Positions 24,712 to 43,530 of a stretch of 49,064 bases of DNA are shown in pieces. Origin of the DNA: Clostridiales bacterium (GTDB lineage Bacteria > Bacillota > Clostridia > Peptostreptococcales > Anaerovoracaceae); the NCBI GenBank assembly GCA_009782285.1, contig WRJK01000008.1, positions 1-49,064 of the forward strand, given 5' to 3'. The translations under genes and the position numbers were made by a program. Each line of letters opens with the position of its first letter. Position 1 is the stretch's first letter. The notes beneath the pieces were generated by a model, which saw nothing but the letters and a program-made list of their open reading frames with translations, did no database searches and had not been told where the DNA came from.

Positions 24712-27117
24712 ATGGCTGAAAAAAAGAAAAAAAGCAATAATACCGGCAAAACCGACAAAGCTGTCGGCAAGAAAAAGGCCGGTGGGACTGTCGCGTCCCG
24801 TGTGAAGGACGAAATCTGGGCCATCGTCATCATGGCTCTGGGTGCCTTCCTCATCATCGCGCTTCAGACCAGCGCCGCCGGGAAGCTTGGCGGCGCCATA
24901 GCCACGCTGTTTTTCGGGGTCTTTGGGTTTATGGCTTATGTCCTGCCGTACTATTTGATACTGTACGGGATGCTGCTGTTCGCCAAAAAGGCTGCCCACG
25001 TCGGTGGGCGCTCAGCTGCATTCCTCGCGCTGATTTTCTTGATGCTTACAATCATCAACTCGAGCAGGTTCATCGACCCAGAGGGCTTGAATTACAGCTT
25101 TGCCGGCATTTTCAACGCTGGCGTGAAGCTTTCAGGCGGAGGGGTTTTCGGCACCTATGCGGGTAACGTTTTAGTGAAACTGACAGGCAAATCAGGCCTT
25201 TTCATATTCTCCTTCGTTGTCATCCTGGCATCGCTGCTTCTGGTGATCAACACGCCCATATCCCAATTCTTGGACAGCCTTAAGCTGAAGAGGGCCGAAA
25301 GGAGGGAAAAGAAGGCGGGCGAGGCATGGGAAGAACCGGCGGAGGGCTCGGCGGCTGCCGCAAAGCCGCCTGCCGCAAAGCCGCCTGCCGCCCCGCCGCT
25401 TGCCGGGGCGGGGCGCCCTGAGCAGCCTCTGCCGGCGGAGCCGGAAGAGGCTGCGGCAGAAAACGGCGCTCCAAGGAAAAGCCCTTTCGACGAGCTTTAC
25501 GGCGGAATGTCTGTGAACCAGATGAAAATAATGGATTACATGAGCGACGACAACCTGTTTGAAAAAACGGAAGCAGCCAACAGAGCCGTTGAAGAATTCA
25601 GTAAAGCCGAAGAGGCTGCGGAGGCAAAACCCCCGATCGCCGGCGGCGCAAAGCTCAGCAAGCCGGCAACAGCGAAGTACCAGCTGCCGTCCATTGAGTT
25701 CCTGAACAAGGGCATCGACGGGAGCAGGCTCAACTCAGACGCGGGCCTCATGGCGAAGGCGGGCAAGCTGGAAGAGACGCTAAGCAATTTTCACGTCGAC
25801 GCCAAAGTGCTCAGGGTCACCCAAGGCCCGGCGGTAACAAGGTACGAAATCCAGCCAAACACAGGCGTCAAGGTGAACAGCATCGTAAGGCTGGCAGACG
25901 ACATTGCGCTGAACCTCGAAGCAAGGAGCATCAGGATCGAGGCACCCATCCCCGGCAAGGCTGCCGTAGGCATCGAAGTCGAAAACGACAAGGTGACGAT
26001 GGTCACGCTCAGGGACATACTGGCGTCAAAGGAATTCAAGGACTCGAAGTCGAAGATCGCTTTTGCCATCGGCAAGGACATCTCAGGCAACTCCATAGTC
26101 GCCGACCTGAAAGAGATGCCCCACATGCTGATTGCCGGCGCCACGGGCTCGGGCAAGAGCGTTTGCATCAACAGCATCATCATAAGCATCCTGTACAAGG
26201 CGCTTCCCGAGGAAGTCAAGCTGGTCCTGATCGACCCGAAAGTCGTCGAGCTGAGGAACTACAACGGCATCCCGCACCTCTTGATCCCTGTTGTGACGGA
26301 GCCGCCGAAAGCTGCTGCGGCACTGGGCTGGGCCGTTTCCGAGATGACCGACAGGTACAAGAAATTTGCTGAAGAAGGCGTGCGCGACCTGGATTCATAC
26401 AACGGCTCAGTCAGGAAACGAAACGAAAACGACATGGTGCTCCCTCAGATTGTCATCATTATCGACGAGCTCGCGGACCTTATGATGGCTGCGCCGTCCC
26501 AAGTCGAAGAATCCATATGCAGGCTGGCGCAGATGGCGCGGGCGGCGGGCATGCACTTGATCGTCGCCACCCAAAGGCCTTCCGTAGACATAATAACCGG
26601 GGTTATAAAAGCCAACATCCCGTCAAGGATAGCCTTCGCCGTTTCATCCCAGTTCGATTCCAGGACGATTCTGGACATGTCCGGGGCAGAGAAGCTCGTT
26701 GGCAAAGGCGACATGCTGTTCAACCCGATTGGCATCCCAAAACCTGTCAGGGTGCAGGGCACGTTCATATCCGACAGCGAAGTGCACAGGGTCATCGAAT
26801 TCGTGAAATCCCAGTCCAAGGAGGTCGAGTACGCGGACGACGTGATCCACACGATAGAAAAAGGGGACGCAGAGGGCAGCCAAGGCGGCGACGAGCTCCT
26901 GGACGAAGCGATAGAAACAGTCGTAAAGACCAAGCAGGCATCGGCTTCAGGGCTGCAAAGGCGCTTCCGCATAGGGTACAACAGAGCTGCCAGGATAATT
27001 GAAATAATGGAAGCGAAGGGGATTATAAGCAGGGCCGACGGGAGCAAGCCCAGGCAGGTGCTGATGACCGAGGAAGAGCTTTACGAGGCCGGAAACGAGA
27101 AGAAAGGGCTTGAATAG
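24712..27117 (+). CDS. ftsK: DNA translocase FtsK/SpoIIIE
   Basis: N-terminal polytopic membrane domain, Pro/Ala-rich linker ([17 protein letters not shown]), motor domain with Walker [12 protein letters not shown] and Walker [11 protein letters not shown], and a C-terminal winged-helix gamma domain. ATG 24712. Confidence 0.9.
25356..25392. repeat. 15 bp x ~2.5 tandem repeat inside the ftsK linker (AAKPP)
   Basis: tgccgcaaagccgcc tgccgcaaagccgcc tgccgcc. Confidence 0.8.
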
Positions 27118-36186: not shown

Positions 36187-37514
<1,328 letters not shown>

Positions 37515-37521
<7 letters not shown>

Positions 37522-38273
37522 TCGACTTTAAACGAGGCCACTTTGCCCACATAGTCGATTTCGTCAAAGGAATCCAGTATCAGGATTTCCGAGGTTCTGT
37601 CATCGGGGATCAGCAGAATTTTTTCTTTCACGAGGTACATCCTCCTCAAGATCAGGATTTTCCTGTTCCCAGGGTAAAACGCGATGATGTCGCGGTCTTT
37701 CAGCAGGTCTGTCCTTGTCCTTATAATGTACAGGAACGAATGGATGGGGATTGTAGGCGCCATGGCGTTGTCGCCGAGGAACACCGTCATGATTTCGCTG
37801 TCGTTATCTTTTACAATGCCGCCGCTTTCGAGGGTTATCCGCTTTGCGAGGTCGTTTTCGATTTCTGCACCGCCGTCCTTCATGTATTTGCTGGACATTT
37901 CAATTGCGGTCAGCACGTCCATTTCCCGCAGGTACGCCAAAGCGCTATCTGACACGTTGCTTTCCTGCGCCTTGTACAAGGTCTCAAGCATGATTTTGTT
38001 CAGGTTTGACGACGCAAACATGTATTCCTTTATCACGTCCGGCGCCTTTTCGAGATACCCTTGGAAAATAAGCTTCGACTGTTCCTTTGATTCGCAGGCC
38101 TTGGCAAGGATCATTGATACTTCAGGCGAAGGCGGGGGAAGCTTCCCGTTCTTCAGCTGAGAAACGTACGACGGCGTTATGCTCAGCCCAAAATCCGCAC
38201 AGCGTTTTGTTATCTGCCTCAGCGACAATTTGCTTCTGTCTATCATGTCGCACAGCATTTCGGCGTAGCTCAC
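37515..38273 (-). CDS. XRE-family HTH plus S24 (LexA/cI-like) peptidase-domain repressor
   Basis: N-terminal HTH (LSLRQITKRCADFGLSITPSYVSQLKNG) and a C-terminal S24-like segment (FLGDNAMAPTI...). GTG start 38273 sits 8 nt after AAAGGAGG; the ORF track start 38312 reads through the RBS. Confidence 0.65.
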
Positions 38274-38424: not shown

Positions 38425-38982
38425 ATGGAGGACAGGCACCCGGGAAGGGAAGAATGCTTGGAATTGCTGAAAAACTACGGAACCCCTGCCCATGTAGTCA
38501 GGCACTGCATAGCCGTTGCGGACGCAGCACTGGCGATTGCGCGGGCGCTTGTGGAAAAAGGGTTCGTTTTCGACTTGGCGCTGGTGCAGTCAGCCGGCTT
38601 GCTGCACGACGTTGCGAGGGCCGAAACCGAGCACTGGGTGTCAGGGGCGGAATACGCCAGAAGGCTCGGCTTCGCGAAGGAGGCAGAAATAATCAGGAGG
38701 CACATGAACCATTCTTTCGACCCGGATCCGGCGAAGCTGAGAGAGCTGGACCTGGTGTGCCTCGGCGACAGGATAGTCCTTGAGGACAGGTACGTGGGCT
38801 TTGACGCTAGGATGGATTACGTGATAAAAAAAGCCGGCGGCGGCGAGCGGATTGAAAAAATGATTAGCGAAAGCAAAAAAGTGAACAGCGCGCTGGCTAG
38901 GAACATCGAAGAAGTTATTGGCGTTTCCATTGATGAGCTTATGCTCGAAGGGAATAGCAGGAAGGCCGCAGATGAACATTGA
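38425..38982 (+). CDS. HD-domain phosphohydrolase-like protein
   Basis: HCIAVADAAL...LLHDVAR HD motif. ATG 38425 after AGGTGG. Confidence 0.65.
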   Translation: MEDRHPGREECLELLKNYGTPAHVVRHCIAVADAALAIARALVEKGFVFDLALVQSAGLLHDVARAETEHWVSGAEYARRLGFAKEAEIIRRHMNHSFDPDPAKLRELDLVCLGDRIVLEDRYVGFDARMDYVIKKAGGGERIEKMISESKKVNSALARNIEEVIGVSIDELMLEGNSRKAADEH

Positions 38983-40771
38983 GTACGAATTTGAAAAACT
39001 ACTGAAAAGAGTTGAAAAACCAGCCCGTTATACAGGCGGGGAAGTCAACGAGGTGCAGAAGGACCCCGGCAACTGCAGCTTGCGGTTCGGGTTCGCTTTT
39101 CCCGACATGTACGAAATAGGCATGTCGTACCTAGGGCTCCAGGTTTTGTACAGCGTTTTAAACGAGAGGGATGGGACCTACTGCGAGAGGGTGTTCGCTC
39201 CGGCGCCTGACATGGAATCCTTGATGAGGGAACGAGGGGTGCCTCTTTTCACCCTTGAAACCAAGACCCCCGTCAGAGAGCTGGACATTTTGGGCTTTAC
39301 GCTCCAGTACGAGCTTTCTTACACTAACGTCCTGAACATGCTGTCCCTTGCAGGAATCCCTGTTTTCGCCAAGGACAGGGGCGAGGGAATGCCTTTCGTT
39401 GTCGGAGGGGGGCCGTGCGCTTTCAACCCAGAGCCTGTAGCAGGCATTTTTGACGCATTTTTGATAGGGGACGGCGAAGAAGCAGTTGTCAAGCTGTGCG
39501 GCCTGTACGAGAGCTGGAAAGCGTCGGGCGAAGGCAAAGCAAGCTTCCTTGAGGCGGCATGCCGAACGGAGGGCGTCTACGTCCCGAGCTTCTACGAGCC
39601 GTGTTATTTGGAGACCGGAGAAATCGGCGGGGTGAAAAAGCTTTTCGATGGGGCGGCAGACAGAGTGAAAAAAAGCGTCCTTTGGGACTTGAACAGCACA
39701 GTTCCACCGGAAAAATGCATTGTGCCGTTGATTGAAACCGTGCACGACAGGGCGGTTGTGGAAACGTTCCGGGGCTGCACGAGGGGGTGCCGGTTCTGCC
39801 AAGCAGGCATGATATACAGGCCAGTGCGCGAAAGGTCCTCAGACAGCATAATTGGGTCAGCTGAAAGGCAGCTCAAGGCTACCGGGCACGAAGAGCTTTC
39901 GCTGCTGTCGCTTTCCACAAGCGATCATTCGGAATTTGAGCCGCTTGCAACCCGCCTTATGGCAATGTGCAAGGAAAACAACGTATCGCTTTCGCTGCCT
40001 TCGCTGAGGCTCGATTCTTTCTCTTTCAAGGCCCTTGGCGAGATCGGAGGGTACAAGAAGTCAGGGCTTACCTTCGCCCCTGAGGCGGGCACTCAGAGGC
40101 TCAGGGACGTCATCAACAAGAACATCACGGAGGAAAGCATATTTGGTTCCGTCAGCCAAGCGGCTGAGCTGGGCTGGGGGACGGTAAAGCTGTACTTCAT
40201 GGTTGGCCTTCCCACCGAAACCTACGAAGACCTTGACGGTATTGCCGAAATAGCCAGAAGGATAATGGAGGCCTGCCGCAAAGGCCGCATGAAACTTACA
40301 GTGAGCGTTTCCAATTTCGTCCCCAAGGCCCACACGCCTTTCCAGTGGGAGGCTCAGGACGCATACGAAGACTTTGTCAGCAAGCACGACTACTTGAAAG
40401 AAAAACTGAAGATTAAGGGCGTTTCGTTCAGTTACCACGACAGCTGCATGAGCGTTGTCGAGGCAGCTCTTGCAAGGGGCGACCGCAGGGTGACGGCGGC
40501 GCTGGTGAATGCGTGGGAAAAAGGCTGCAGATTTGACGCATGGTCGGAGCATTTCAATTACAGCCTCTGGAAAGAGGCGTTTGAGGAAGCGGGGGTCAGC
40601 ATGGGCTATTACGCGTCAAGAAAACGCAAGTATGACGAGGCACTGCCTTGGGACGTCATAGACTGCCTAGTTTCAAAGGAATACCTCATCACGGAAAATG
40701 AGAAGTCGAAATCAGCCGAAACAACGGAAGATTGCAGGCAGGGGTGCAGACAATGCGGAATAAATACGTAA
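38972..40771 (+). CDS. radical SAM protein, TIGR03960-like (B12-binding-like N-terminal domain)
   Basis: MNIEYEFEKLLKRVEKPARYTGGEVN start, CxxxCxxC (RGCTRGCRFCQAG), ~600 aa; the conserved partner DUF2344 gene follows with an overlapping start. ATG 38972 overlaps the HD gene stop. Confidence 0.8.
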   Translation: MNIEYEFEKLLKRVEKPARYTGGEVNEVQKDPGNCSLRFGFAFPDMYEIGMSYLGLQVLYSVLNERDGTYCERVFAPAPDMESLMRERGVPLFTLETKTPVRELDILGFTLQYELSYTNVLNMLSLAGIPVFAKDRGEGMPFVVGGGPCAFNPEPVAGIFDAFLIGDGEEAVVKLCGLYESWKASGEGKASFLEAACRTEGVYVPSFYEPCYLETGEIGGVKKLFDGAADRVKKSVLWDLNSTVPPEKCIVPLIETVHDRAVVETFRGCTRGCRFCQAGMIYRPVRERSSDSIIGSAERQLKATGHEELSLLSLSTSDHSEFEPLATRLMAMCKENNVSLSLPSLRLDSFSFKALGEIGGYKKSGLTFAPEAGTQRLRDVINKNITEESIFGSVSQAAELGWGTVKLYFMVGLPTETYEDLDGIAEIARRIMEACRKGRMKLTVSVSNFVPKAHTPFQWEAQDAYEDFVSKHDYLKEKLKIKGVSFSYHDSCMSVVEAALARGDRRVTAALVNAWEKGCRFDAWSEHFNYSLWKEAFEEAGVSMGYYASRKRKYDEALPWDVIDCLVSKEYLITENEKSKSAETTEDCRQGCRQCGINT

Positions 40772-41421
40772 TAAAGCTCGCGAAGGGCGGATACCTTAAG
40801 TACATATCGCACCTAGACATGGTGCGGCTCTTCAAGAGCGCTTTCAAACGGGCCGGAATCAGGCTAACCCACTCCCAAGGGTTCAACCCCCACCCGAGGC
40901 TCAGTTTGGCGCAGCCGCTGCCTTTGGGTTACTCTTCAACGTGCGAGCTGTTGGAATTTGAAATTTCAGAGGACATGAAGCCTGCGGAAATACTGGACAA
41001 GATGCGCCAAGCGGTGCCGGAAGGGATCAAGCTCTTGGGATGCGGGAGGGCGGCAGAAGGCAAGAGCCTTGCAGCCAGGGCCGTCGCTGCATCGTATGAG
41101 GTGCGCATCCCGCTTGATGCCGGGTTTGAGTGCGATTTTGGCGAGCTTTGCGAGAATTTTATGAAACAGGAAGCGATTCCGGCTTTGAAGCGTCAGAAAA
41201 AGGCCGATGTGAAAAAAGAGACAGATATTAAAGGCATGATAAGGGAGCTTCAAGGCGAAAAAGTTGACGATAACCTTATTCTGTATATCAAAGTTGACGC
41301 AGGCAACCGCTCAAATTTAAGCCCTGAACTGCTGATACCTGCGTTCGCTTCTTTTGCCGGCATAAACACCGCACGTGAAGAGATGGACGTCACGAGGACA
41401 GGGCTGTATTTTTTGCGCTAG
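40753..41421 (+). CDS. DUF2344/TIGR03936-like radical-SAM-linked protein
   Basis: MRNKYVIKLAKGGYLKYISHLDMVRLFKSAFKRAGIRLTHSQGFNPHPRLSLAQPLPLG matches the conserved partner of TIGR03960 radical SAM proteins. Confidence 0.75.
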   Translation: MRNKYVIKLAKGGYLKYISHLDMVRLFKSAFKRAGIRLTHSQGFNPHPRLSLAQPLPLGYSSTCELLEFEISEDMKPAEILDKMRQAVPEGIKLLGCGRAAEGKSLAARAVAASYEVRIPLDAGFECDFGELCENFMKQEAIPALKRQKKADVKKETDIKGMIRELQGEKVDDNLILYIKVDAGNRSNLSPELLIPAFASFAGINTAREEMDVTRTGLYFLR

Positions 41422-41436
41422 CAGGAGGTGGCGTCA

Positions 41437-42258
41437 ATGCCAGAAACAACATTTGTATCATCAGACAGGCTGCTGTTCATGTTCATCACGCTGGGCTTGT
41501 CCGTTTTGTTCCCCATTGCGCTGTGGATTGTGTTTGCTCTGCGGAAAAAGCGGGTCACAGCTGCTGTGCTTGCCGGGACAGTGGGGTTCGTAGTCCCTCA
41601 GTTGTTCATTCGGGTACCTGTCTTGCAGCTGATGGCGCTGAACCAGCAGTGGGTTGCGTTCTGCGCCAGGAACACCGTACTTTCGTGCGCGTTCTATGCC
41701 TCGACGGCGGCATTGTTTGAGACTGCAGGGCGCATACTGGTCCTGCGCGGGCTGCTGCATAAAAGCCTGTCCTACGACACGGCCTTGGGCGCAGGCTTGG
41801 GGCATGGCGCCGCCGAATCCATAGGATTGATCGGCATGACTTATGTCAACAACATCATACTCAGTTTTATGATTAACGCCGGCACCCTGCCGGCTGCACC
41901 TGAGCTGCAGCCGGCTGTAGAAGCGCTGACCCAGACCCAGCCAAGCCTGTTCCTGCTGGCTGGGCTTGAGCGCGTGTTCACCATAGCGTTCCACATGGCT
42001 CTGACCACGGTTTTATCCCTATTCATCTTGAAGAAAGACCTGTTCAAAGGAGCGCTGCTGGTTATTGCCATGCATTTTGCCGTTGATTTTATTGTTCCGC
42101 TGGCAATGGCGAAAGGGCTAAACGCTTGGGCGGCAGAATGCATCATTTGCCTTGTTGCGCTAGGAAGCGCAGCACTCATCGCACTGCTCAAATCGAAATT
42201 CCCCGTCGTCGAATCGCCAGAAGACCCAGCAGCCATCGCCCTCAGAGAAGGCTACTAA
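41437..42258 (+). CDS. polytopic membrane protein, putative YhfC/CPBP-type intramembrane metalloprotease
   Basis: At least 6 predicted TM helices. Candidate motifs FETAGR (ExxxR), AFHMA and HFAVD (HxxxD). ATG 41437 after AGGAGGTG. Confidence 0.5.
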   Translation: MPETTFVSSDRLLFMFITLGLSVLFPIALWIVFALRKKRVTAAVLAGTVGFVVPQLFIRVPVLQLMALNQQWVAFCARNTVLSCAFYASTAALFETAGRILVLRGLLHKSLSYDTALGAGLGHGAAESIGLIGMTYVNNIILSFMINAGTLPAAPELQPAVEALTQTQPSLFLLAGLERVFTIAFHMALTTVLSLFILKKDLFKGALLVIAMHFAVDFIVPLAMAKGLNAWAAECIICLVALGSAALIALLKSKFPVVESPEDPAAIALREGY

Positions 42259-42428
42259 CTACCAACTACAAACTACCAACTACCAACTACCAACTCCCCA
42301 CTACAAACTAACAACTACCAACTCCCCACTACAAACTACCAACTACCAACTCCCCACTACCAACTAAAAACTACCAACTACAAACTAAAAACTACCAACT
42401 ACAAACTACAAACTACCAACTACAAAAG
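42254..42428. repeat. heptanucleotide tandem array, 25 units of AC[CA]AACT (variants CCCCACT, AAAAACT, AACAACT), G-free on the plus strand
   Basis: ACTAACT ACCAACT ACAAACT ACCAACT ... ACAAACT ACCAACT ACAAAAG. It fills the entire spacer from the stop codon of 41437..42258 to the AAAAGGAGG RBS of 42441..42755. Confidence 0.9.
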
Positions 42429-42440
42429 GAGGAAAAAAAC

Positions 42441-42755
42441 ATGTTAATGACAACTACAGAGATTATTCCAGGCAAAGAGTACACCATCATAGGCATTGCA
42501 AAAGGCGGGACCATCCAGTCGAAGCACATTGGCAAGGACATCATGGCCAACTTGAAGCAGATCGTCGGAGGCGAGCTTGTAGGCTACAATGAAATGATGA
42601 ACGAGGCGCGGGCGCTCGCGACGAAGCGCATGGTTGAGGAAGCGGCATCGATGGGTGCCGATGCCATCGTCTGCCTTCGGTATTCGACATCAGCCATAAT
42701 GGCTGCTGCCGCTGAAGTCATGGCTTACGGCACGGCAGTCAAATTTAAATCCTGA
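42441..42755 (+). CDS. YbjQ/UPF0145 (DUF74) family protein
   Basis: MLMTTTEIIPGKEYTIIGIAKGGTIQSKHIGKDIMANLKQIVGGELVGYNEMMNEAR is typical YbjQ. Confidence 0.8.
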   Translation: MLMTTTEIIPGKEYTIIGIAKGGTIQSKHIGKDIMANLKQIVGGELVGYNEMMNEARALATKRMVEEAASMGADAIVCLRYSTSAIMAAAAEVMAYGTAVKFKS

Positions 42756-42766
42756 AAAAAACAGTA

Positions 42767-42796
42767 TTGACATTATATGGTATGATATGCTATAAT
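42767..42796 (+). promoter_or_regulatory. promoter upstream of comEA (TTGACA-18-TATAAT) followed by a 7 bp leader hairpin
   Basis: TTGACA 42767-42772, TATAAT 42791-42796; downstream leader hairpin gaggagc...gctcctc around 42810-42836. Confidence 0.5.
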
Positions 42797-42861
42797 AACC
42801 AAAGAAGGTGAGGAGCAGTCGTCTATCGGCTCCTCATCTGATATCACAAGGAGGAGAGGTT

Positions 42862-43530
42862 ATGAACATCAGTACCATTAAAGCGTACATACTGGAAAAC
42901 AAAAGCAAATCAATGAAAGCAGGCGCCGTTGTTTTTGTGTTGGTTGTAGCGCTGACAATTTTCCTGACAGGGAACTCAGGAAAAACCAACGACATCACAG
43001 TGGTCGAGGCGAGTACGGCAGGGCCTGCCGCAGAGGAGGAGGTTGCCGTTTTAGCTGAAGAAGAAAAAGAGGCGTTCATTGTTGTGGACATCGAAGGCGC
43101 CGTAAAGGCACCCGGCATAGTGCGCCTGCCAGAAGGAAGCAGGGTGAACGACGCCGTTGTGGAGGCTGGCGGGCTGGCAGCCGGCGCAGACACTATGGAA
43201 GTCAATTTGGCTGCGCGGCTTTCGGACGGCGACAAAGTGTACATCCCGAAAGAAGCAGAACAGCAAAGCGATTCGCCGGCAGCGGTGGGCATCGTCACAA
43301 GCGAGGTTTCCGGCCAGCAGCCGGGCATCGCATCAGGCAGCATGATCAACATAAACACAGCGAATTCCGAACAGCTTCAGGCATTAAACGGGGTAGGGCC
43401 GGCTACCGCCCAAAAGATCATCGACTACCGCGAAAGCTCCGGCGGGTTCAAAAAGGCCGAAGACCTCATGAATGTGAGCGGCATCGGAAGCAAGACCTTC
43501 GAGAAAATCAAGGACAAAATTATAGTGTGA
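42862..43530 (+). CDS. comEA: competence protein ComEA (SLBB + tandem helix-hairpin-helix DNA-binding domain)
   Basis: N-terminal TM segment, SLBB-like VVDIEGAVKAPGIVRLPEGSRVNDAVVEAGG, C-terminal INTANSEQLQALNGVGPATAQKIIDYRESSGGFKKAEDLMNVSGIGSKTFEKI. ATG 42862 after GGAGG. Confidence 0.85.
   Translation: MNISTIKAYILENKSKSMKAGAVVFVLVVALTIFLTGNSGKTNDITVVEASTAGPAAEEEVAVLAEEEKEAFIVVDIEGAVKAPGIVRLPEGSRVNDAVVEAGGLAAGADTMEVNLAARLSDGDKVYIPKEAEQQSDSPAAVGIVTSEVSGQQPGIASGSMININTANSEQLQALNGVGPATAQKIIDYRESSGGFKKAEDLMNVSGIGSKTFEKIKDKIIV

Follow-up and report, generated by a model that had tools for sequence, protein, structure and literature searches.

The spacer between yhfC and ybjQ is occupied from end to end by a G-free tandem array of seven-nucleotide units, and on balance we favour reading it as a lineage-specific, fast-mutating heptanucleotide microsatellite that was expanded by slippage within this spacer and is tolerated there as an inert linker. 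The array lies in a 49,064-nt stretch of DNA (the window) from the metagenome-assembled genome of an uncultured member of the Clostridia. The genes and signals around it are the following:

38918-40771, + strand: radical SAM gene, upstream of yhfC and closely spaced
40732-41421, + strand: DUF2344 gene, upstream of yhfC and closely spaced
41428-42258, + strand: yhfC, encoding a YhfC-family intramembrane metalloprotease (PF10086, E 2.4e-24)
42252-42427, + strand: heptanucleotide tandem array, identical in extent to the G-free run (TRF; G-free run scan)
42426-42443, + strand: ybjQ ribosome binding site, AAGGAGG, an 8-nt spacer and ATG, as read from the sequence
42441-42755, + strand: ybjQ, encoding a 104-aa protein of the YbjQ_1 (UPF0145) family (PF01906, E 1.5e-33)

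Tandem Repeats Finder (TRF) counts 24.6 copies of a period-7 repeat at 42252-42423 (81% matches, score 218) and returns no other substantial period-7 array in the 49-kb window. The coding strand of the array consists of 46% A, 39% C and 14% T, with no G at all, and the G-free run on the + strand (42252-42427) extends over 176 nt, the runner-up in the window measuring 37 nt. In the ACNAACT register the array resolves into these parts, all on the + strand:

42254-42260: degenerate first unit ACTAACT, overlapping the final codon of yhfC and its stop (TAC TAA)
42261-42421: 23 in-register full units
42296, 42324 and 42352 (block 42296-42358): three CCCCACT units, exactly 28 nt apart
42359-42372: block ACCAACT-AAAAACT, found twice in a second assembly and the site of a 14-nt difference
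42422-42428: degenerate last unit ACAAAAG, merging into the Shine-Dalgarno (SD) sequence

The full units comprise ACCAACT (A, 11 copies), ACAAACT (B, six), CCCCACT (C, three), AAAAACT (D, two) and AACAACT (E, one), so coded that the allele in the window reads ABAAACBEACBAACADABDABBA, and ACT is invariant in 23 of 23. The two-unit pattern ACMAACTACMAACT, with at most one mismatch allowed, matches 17 times, always within the array, against 0.02 matches expected from shuffles. The array is hemmed in on both sides by coding signals, with the TAA stop of yhfC (42256-42258) inside the first degenerate unit and the GGAGG of the ybjQ SD at 42428-42432, 8 nt ahead of the ATG. The original prediction had counted 25 units over 175 nt, a figure that is reproduced by the 23 full units together with one degenerate unit at each end. 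It had further described a coding strand without G for about 175 nt, an array filling the entire intergenic spacer and flanking genes for a membrane protease and a YbjQ-like protein. These descriptions hold as well, given the 176-nt run, a yhfC-ybjQ spacer of 182 nt that is taken up by the array from stop codon to SD, and the matches to PF10086 and PF01906.

The order of the variant units retains traces of how the array grew. Self-identity of the array is 0.81 at a lag of 7 nt, 0.84 (0.844) at 21 nt and highest, 0.857, at 28 nt. As judged from their placement, the three CCCCACT units mark a four-unit higher-order repeat. Because identity at lags of 28 and 21 nt exceeds that at 7 nt, and because the CCCCACT units stand 28 nt apart, growth by multi-unit duplications is suggested; the later steps would have included duplications of 14, 21 and 28 nt.

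In the public gene calls YhfC starts at 41437 and has 273 aa, and protein P0001 is 100% identical to it. Downstream of ybjQ follow comEA, asnS, aspS and gatCAB. A consensus scan returned neither promoter nor terminator on either strand of the yhfC-ybjQ spacer, and the next promoter-like site, a perfect TTGACA-18-TATAAT, comes only after ybjQ, which suggests that ybjQ is most likely co-transcribed with yhfC. The sense strand of the array contains no G and no TT, and the antisense strand allows its best -35-like and -10-like hexamers a spacing of 12 or 19 nt only.

Where does such an array come from? The nearest homologues of YhfC in a database of 5.8 billion proteins are only 72%, 68% and 62% identical, and in the first two of these relatives ybjQ lies directly downstream of yhfC, behind spacers of 49 and 68 nt. 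A metagenome scan yielded five further yhfC-ybjQ loci at 42-46% YhfC identity, and no relative above 46%. Their spacers measure 3 nt (L125), 5 nt (L126), 4 nt (L128), 38 nt (L130) and 19 nt (L131); L126 and L127 scored identically, and one of the two was read. The array is absent in seven of seven relatives with adjacent yhfC and ybjQ (spacers 3-68 nt, YhfC identity 42-72%), which argues for a recent, lineage-specific expansion. Judged from these loci, the yhfC-ybjQ pair is ancestral and normally tight, and the spacer of 182 or 196 nt (the latter in the second assembly) is derived in this lineage. In two relatives, L003 and L130, A/C-rich sequence is found directly before the SD.

The C-terminus of YhfC ends in E-G-Y-stop also in relatives without the array. 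In the window the corresponding codons (GGC TAC TAA) run in register with the repeat, CTACTAA being followed by CTACCAA and so on. If the array is deleted in silico, what remains is TAA-CTACAAAAGGAGGAAAAAAAC-ATG, a 21-nt spacer that falls within the range of the relatives. The probable seeds of the array are CTACTAA at the stop of yhfC and CTACAAA ahead of the ybjQ SD, two adjacent imperfect copies from which slippage would have started.

The same species is represented by a second assembly, an ENA metagenome contig (L001/L270) that shares 16.6 kb with the window. Over this distance the two differ by 10 substitutions, five in the body and five at the contig end, the latter all within the final 27 nt of the window contig. 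The sole indel is a 14-nt, two-unit duplication within the array, L001/L270 being the longer, with the unit string ABAAACBEACBAACADADABDABBA (25 units against 23 in the window) and a spacer of 196 rather than 182 nt. One random indel would land in 176 of 16,600 nt with a probability of about 0.01. The array appears polymorphic between the two assemblies. These are two full-length alleles (n=2), both from short-read metagenome assemblies and with a repeat of 176-190 nt that is longer than a typical read, and the difference of 23 versus 25 could in part reflect assembly or heterogeneity within the population. Exact-protein look-ups with YbjQ and YhfC led to three sources only, namely the window contig, one ENA contig and broken Logan contigs; the k=31 assembly (Logan) of SRR6220664 is interrupted on either side of the array, with both contig ends entering the repeat.

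This comparison bears on three points raised earlier. The array had been called a classic substrate for slipped-strand mispairing, in line with which the single indel in 16.6 kb proves to be a 14-nt (two-unit) duplication inside it. A change in copy number was expected to alter spacer length and not reading frame, and the two-unit indel indeed lies between stop codon and SD. Finally, the check that had been proposed, copy number across strains, gives a difference of two units between two near-identical short-read assemblies.

The array belongs to a known class, that of bacterial heptanucleotide microsatellites. Heptanucleotide repeats are reported to be the most abundant class of long simple sequence repeats (SSRs) in most prokaryotic genomes (Mrazek 2007, as cited in PMC4679880 and PMC4692102). 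In the accounts that these two later papers give, such SSRs are attributed to polymerase slippage, with a stretch of about 7 nt possibly interacting with the polymerase (PMC4679880; PMC4692102). The present array consists of head-to-tail units within the 1-11-nt range repeated far beyond chance length, appears polymorphic by whole units between close genomes (on two short-read alleles) and is not conserved at the orthologous site in distant relatives. It thus shares with the long prokaryotic heptanucleotide SSRs (Mrazek, Guo and Shah 2007) its intergenic position, length beyond chance, restriction to a lineage, changes in multiples of 7 nt and slippage as the proposed origin. Differently to the heptamer-rich genomes of that class (Cyanobacteria, Xanthomonas, Burkholderia, Bacteroidetes), the host here is represented by an uncultured Clostridia genome, and the array is apparently single in 49 kb, lies within an operon and occupies the whole spacer.

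The closest parallel in position is offered by the TAACTGA repeats of marine Beggiatoaceae, Cyanobacteria and Bacteroidetes (MacGregor 2015, PMC4679880). These arrays are found in forward orientation ahead of start codons, show 7-nt indels between strains and are absent in close relatives (PMC4679880). In both cases forward heptamers end near a start codon, the arrays are long (up to 43 copies for TAACTGA), spacers in close relatives are shorter and free of repeats, 7-nt indels distinguish strains, and the core AACT is common to the units (AACTACC here, AACTGAT there). The unit here is nevertheless not TAACTGA and the array is G-free. An SD is present at its end, whereas few canonical ribosome binding sites occur beside the Beggiatoaceae repeats. 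Set against that network of repeats, the present array is likewise forward and ends at the SD, and is the sole such array in the 49-kb window. A further heptamer, GGGGATT, forms arrays inside the pec operon of Nostoc (PMC4692102).

How could an operon accommodate a spacer of this kind? In the reading as a tolerated microsatellite, the array would be transcribed within the yhfC-ybjQ mRNA as an inert, unstructured linker. Because it is G-free, it can form neither G-C nor G-U pairs, hence no stable hairpins or terminators, and its RNA carries no ATG, GTG or TTG start and no SD-like site. This lack of hairpins, terminators, start codons and SD mimics would explain its tolerance, as would the fact that no sigma-70-type promoter was found within it and that ybjQ retains a strong SD directly 3'. 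The modelled folding agrees: the array transcript is predicted to fold no better than shuffles (z=+1.2), with a centroid structure free of pairs within the array. No Rfam match was obtained at the gathering threshold, and none at E<=1 for 42100-42900 (Rfam 15). With no Rfam match up to E<=1 and folding not above shuffles, a structured RNA or riboswitch was rejected.

The original prediction had also supposed that copy number might alter mRNA structure, an idea that is not borne out by the model. In the partition-function calculation GGAGG is left unpaired with a probability of 0.27 for 23 units, 0.29 for 25 and 0.40 without the array, so that modelled accessibility of the SD changes little, and copy number is predicted to be without structural effect on the SD. 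Each CCCCACT unit does carry CUCC, weakly complementary to the SD; sequestration of the SD by this route was discarded, as it would involve 4 bp only and is seen just in a minimum free energy (MFE) structure with a frequency of 0.04%, the centroid lacking it.

Gaining or losing one or a few units would then have little effect on the expression of ybjQ, and the array is most likely close to neutral in function, which would make it most likely not an evolved regulatory element. If it is a tolerated microsatellite, it offers a strain-typing marker for an uncultured organism, as well as a defined spot at which short-read assemblies break or distort. It also illustrates that a G-free repeat can reach about 180 nt inside an operon free of hairpins, start codons and the promoters and terminators that were scanned for. 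Two properties of the array run against a neutral reading: an untranslated, C-rich, G-free RNA of 176 nt resembles a strong Rho loading site, and CA-rich single strands boost initiation in E. coli (PMC5934652; PMC3879156). By analogy with these systems, it is quite possible that the array has an effect on ybjQ.

The best placed of the alternatives, though an unlikely one, is that the array works as a rheostat of the contingency type, in which the number of repeats would set the length of an untranslated linker and so tune the output of ybjQ. A longer array might offer more loading of Rho after the yhfC stop, or might uncouple translation further, such that ybjQ output would fall as units rise and slippage would yield heritable expression variants. 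Rut sites are stretches of RNA, about 70-80 nt or longer, that are C-rich, G-poor, unstructured and untranslated. The array, at 39% C and 0% G, matches this composition: it is untranslated, is predicted to be unstructured over its 176 nt, well above 80 nt, and contains 23 YC dinucleotides. Natural rut sites, unlike the array, are not tandem repeats. That near-identical genomes differ in copy number, that no separate promoter was found for ybjQ, and that the tight spacers of the relatives (3-68 nt) fit coupled expression are all consistent with such a role.

A precedent exists in the hmw1A and hmw2A genes of H. influenzae, whose 5'-UTR carries a transcribed (ATCTTTC)n repeat that is, as here, a 7-nt unit lying upstream, polymorphic in copy number and neutral for the reading frame, and for hmw1A expression depends inversely on repeat number (PMC12721329). 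There, however, the repeat pairs with a G-rich partner into a long hairpin, which RNase III cleaves (PMC12721329). In the window no such partner was found: within 41300-43400 no arm of an inverted repeat falls on the array, and AGTTGGTAGTT-like sequence is seen only as the array's own complement. The array RNA thus does not pair with a G-rich region, and since no complementary partner exists within 1 kb on each side, the hairpin/RNase III mechanism of hmw1A is excluded; an hmw-like hairpin with any G/U-rich partner was likewise set aside, as the array takes part in no inverted repeat. The genes differ too, the hmw genes encoding phase-variable adhesins and ybjQ a small conserved protein of unknown function that is not a typical phase-variable gene for surface or host interaction. 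Against a rheostat speak, moreover, the lack of conservation of the array among relatives and its occurrence as the only one within 49 kb. In its more specific form, an operon-internal SSR whose linker length sets the expression of ybjQ relative to yhfC through Rho or ribosome sliding, we hold the idea to be somewhat less likely still. If it were true, repeat-driven switching would extend to the intercistronic spacers of housekeeping-type operons, having been known so far at promoters, 5'-UTRs and coding regions of the surface genes of pathogens, and tuning of ybjQ by copy number would amount to a case in which, in an anaerobic Firmicute, repeats in an intercistronic spacer drive variation in expression.

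It is more doubtful again, and on present evidence improbable, that the array serves as a translational enhancer or standby site, in which a single-stranded, CA-rich leader would recruit the 30S subunit and raise or preserve translation of ybjQ. In a variant of this idea, ribosomes that have terminated on yhfC would slide to the ybjQ SD past neither structure nor decoy starts, the G-free array being devoid of ATG, GTG and TTG. Firmicutes depend mainly on strong SDs, and ybjQ already has AAGGAGG. The attraction of the proposal is that the leader is CA-rich and predicted to be single-stranded up to the SD at which it ends, adjoining the ribosome binding site as a standby site would; the A/C-rich stretch before the SD in L003 and L130 points the same way. 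CA-repeat tails serve as ribosome standby sites and strongly raise initiation (PMC5934652), and translation is likewise enhanced by ACA motifs upstream of an SD (PMC3879156). Like these elements, the array places single-stranded CA-rich RNA directly 5' of the SD. The known elements are nevertheless about 10-30 nt long and enterobacterial, as are the supporting data, whereas the array is repetitive and reaches 176 nt. The standby effect in E. coli saturates at 16-18 nt (PMC5934652), which leaves a length of about 170 nt, and the variation between 23 and 25 units, unexplained. In the model the array makes the SD, if anything, slightly less accessible (0.27 with it against 0.40 without), and relatives do without the array altogether.

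Are arrays of this unit found elsewhere? In a scan of one genome per species, three successive ACMAACT units occur in at least 117 genome stretches from many phyla, with Cyanobacteria, Bacteroidota, Patescibacteria, Acidobacteriota, Planctomycetota and a few Firmicutes among the matches listed, and G-free runs of up to 207 nt among them. The 8-kb stretches around the matches listed contain 324 period-7 TRF rows with 127 different units, and no such row was found in 330 kb of unrelated metagenome loci. Viral contigs contain (ACCAACT)3 in 10 stretches, and the controls of the same composition in 47 for (AACCACT)3 and 8 for (ACAACCT)3. Orientation was judged against the neighbouring long ORFs. 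In the co-directional gaps of the matches listed, 15 arrays are sense and 7 antisense (p=0.13, not significant), and the downstream gene is on the same strand in 18 cases and on the opposite one in 14 (p=0.6, not significant). A sequence-specific ACCAACT family spanning phyla was accordingly rejected: 127 heptamer units co-occur, the controls in viral contigs are comparable or commoner, and there is no significant orientation bias. A crude ORF analysis had placed 41 arrays inside sense ORFs, a count dismissed as unreliable given that G-free repeats, having no TAG or TGA, let ORFs run through.

These figures weigh on the proposal, which we regard as very improbable, that the array offers a series of sites, in a 7-nt register, to a protein binding DNA or RNA. 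Such a protein might be a single-strand binder of the Csp/S1 type acting on the sense RNA or a HutP-like reader of UAG-N4 on the antisense RNA. The period of 7 nt is strict and ACT is invariant throughout the full units; the antisense strand reads (UAGUUGG)n, with UAG recurring every 7 nt; and binding of a regulator has been proposed for the TAACTGA arrays (PMC4679880). Yet invariant positions would be expected anyway in a young slippage array, the array is not conserved at this locus, and no promoter was found for an antisense RNA. Among similar arrays elsewhere, orientation is not significantly biased, and in viral contigs the unit is not clearly enriched over the two same-composition controls. 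Measured against the evidence at hand, neither the enhancer nor the binding-site idea is favoured.

Least credible of all is that short-read misassembly made the array or its copy-number difference, for even though the array exceeds typical short-read length and the Logan assembly is broken at it, two independent assemblies give one ordered series of variant units bar one two-unit duplication, both Logan contig ends run into identical repeat sequence, and the interspersed variant units render 141-mers unique.

Among the arrays in other Firmicutes, one in Desulfosporosinus (L009) shows stop codon, array, SD and ATG in that order. In RUG12478 (L122) and in Ruminococcus (L031) the array ends just ahead of an ATG, and in Lachnoclostridium (L111) it precedes a terminator.

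The genes yhfC (an intramembrane metalloprotease, PF10086) and ybjQ (UPF0145, PF01906) are closely linked in this clade, as they are at window positions 41428-42755. Among the fetched loci in which YhfC is at least 42% identical, ybjQ lies directly downstream of yhfC in all except L004, L129, L178 and L189, two of which (L178 and L189) end at or near a contig edge. Where relatives carry the pair with no array (L003, L005, L125, L126, L128, L130 and L131), the spacer measures 3-68 nt. None of the more distant YhfC homologues in the fetched loci (<42% identity) has ybjQ directly after yhfC. Because the pair is both conserved and tightly linked in the clade, the comparison of sequences suggests that the YhfC and YbjQ proteins are functionally linked. 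In L004, the locus of the relative with 62% identity, yhfC is followed by a riboswitch and not by ybjQ; in the window, a promoter of perfect consensus stands directly 3' of ybjQ and upstream of comEA, and the stretch from ybjQ to the promoter showed no intrinsic terminator.

L004 1845-2099: cobalamin riboswitch (RF00174, 31.5 bits, exactly the gathering score)
42767-42796: sigma-70 promoter (TTGACA, 18-nt spacer with TG, TATAAT)

Could the array be translated as part of yhfC? The frame beyond the yhfC TAA is open across the entire array for 62 codons (LPTTNYQLPTTNSPLQ..., window 42259-42446) and terminates shortly past the ybjQ ATG, such that readthrough at the stop codon would give YhfC a long repetitive tail. 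The open frame is probably a mere by-product of base composition, since a G-free sequence contains neither TAG nor TGA.

Arrays of the ACCAACT type also occur at the loci L055 and L031.

L055 3130-3164: ACCAACT array, directly upstream of the prepilin-type N-terminal motif GFTLIELL
L055 4577-4604: ACCAACT array, directly upstream of the prepilin-type N-terminal motif AFTLVEML
L031 3092-3558: array of more than 460 nt, ACCAACT and GCCAACT units alternating with a 14-nt period (Ruminococcus sp. RUG11079)

In L055, both arrays may be part of pilin-like paralogues, lying either in the region for the leader peptide or in the 5' leader; the label of this contig, Limosilactobacillus gorillae, looks like a binning error. 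L031 holds a second array (ACCAACT/ATCAACT), ending 19 nt before an ATG.

Two tRNA calls in the window disagree between tools, and both look doubtful because neither is confirmed by the other program.

25314-25398 (-): tRNA-Arg(GCG), 85 nt, ARAGORN, within a GC-rich 15-nt repeat region
31609-31672 (+): tRNA match, 64 nt, Rfam, 40 bits

The window contains further tandem repeats.

37485-37522: perfect 18-nt tandem duplication (2.1 copies of GTACACCGAAGACTAAAG), extending across the apparent stop codon of the Obg-like GTPase gene
33587-33677: in-frame repeat, 33-nt unit, 2.8 copies
33423-33480: in-frame repeat, 18-nt unit, 3.2 copies

The first is a second slippage-type duplication placed exactly at a gene end. 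Both in-frame repeats lie within a single 332-aa protein with no Pfam match, whose gene adjoins a sortase-like gene. Position 33664, one of the five substitutions that differentiate the window from a second, near-identical assembly in the body of their overlap, falls inside the 33-nt repeat.
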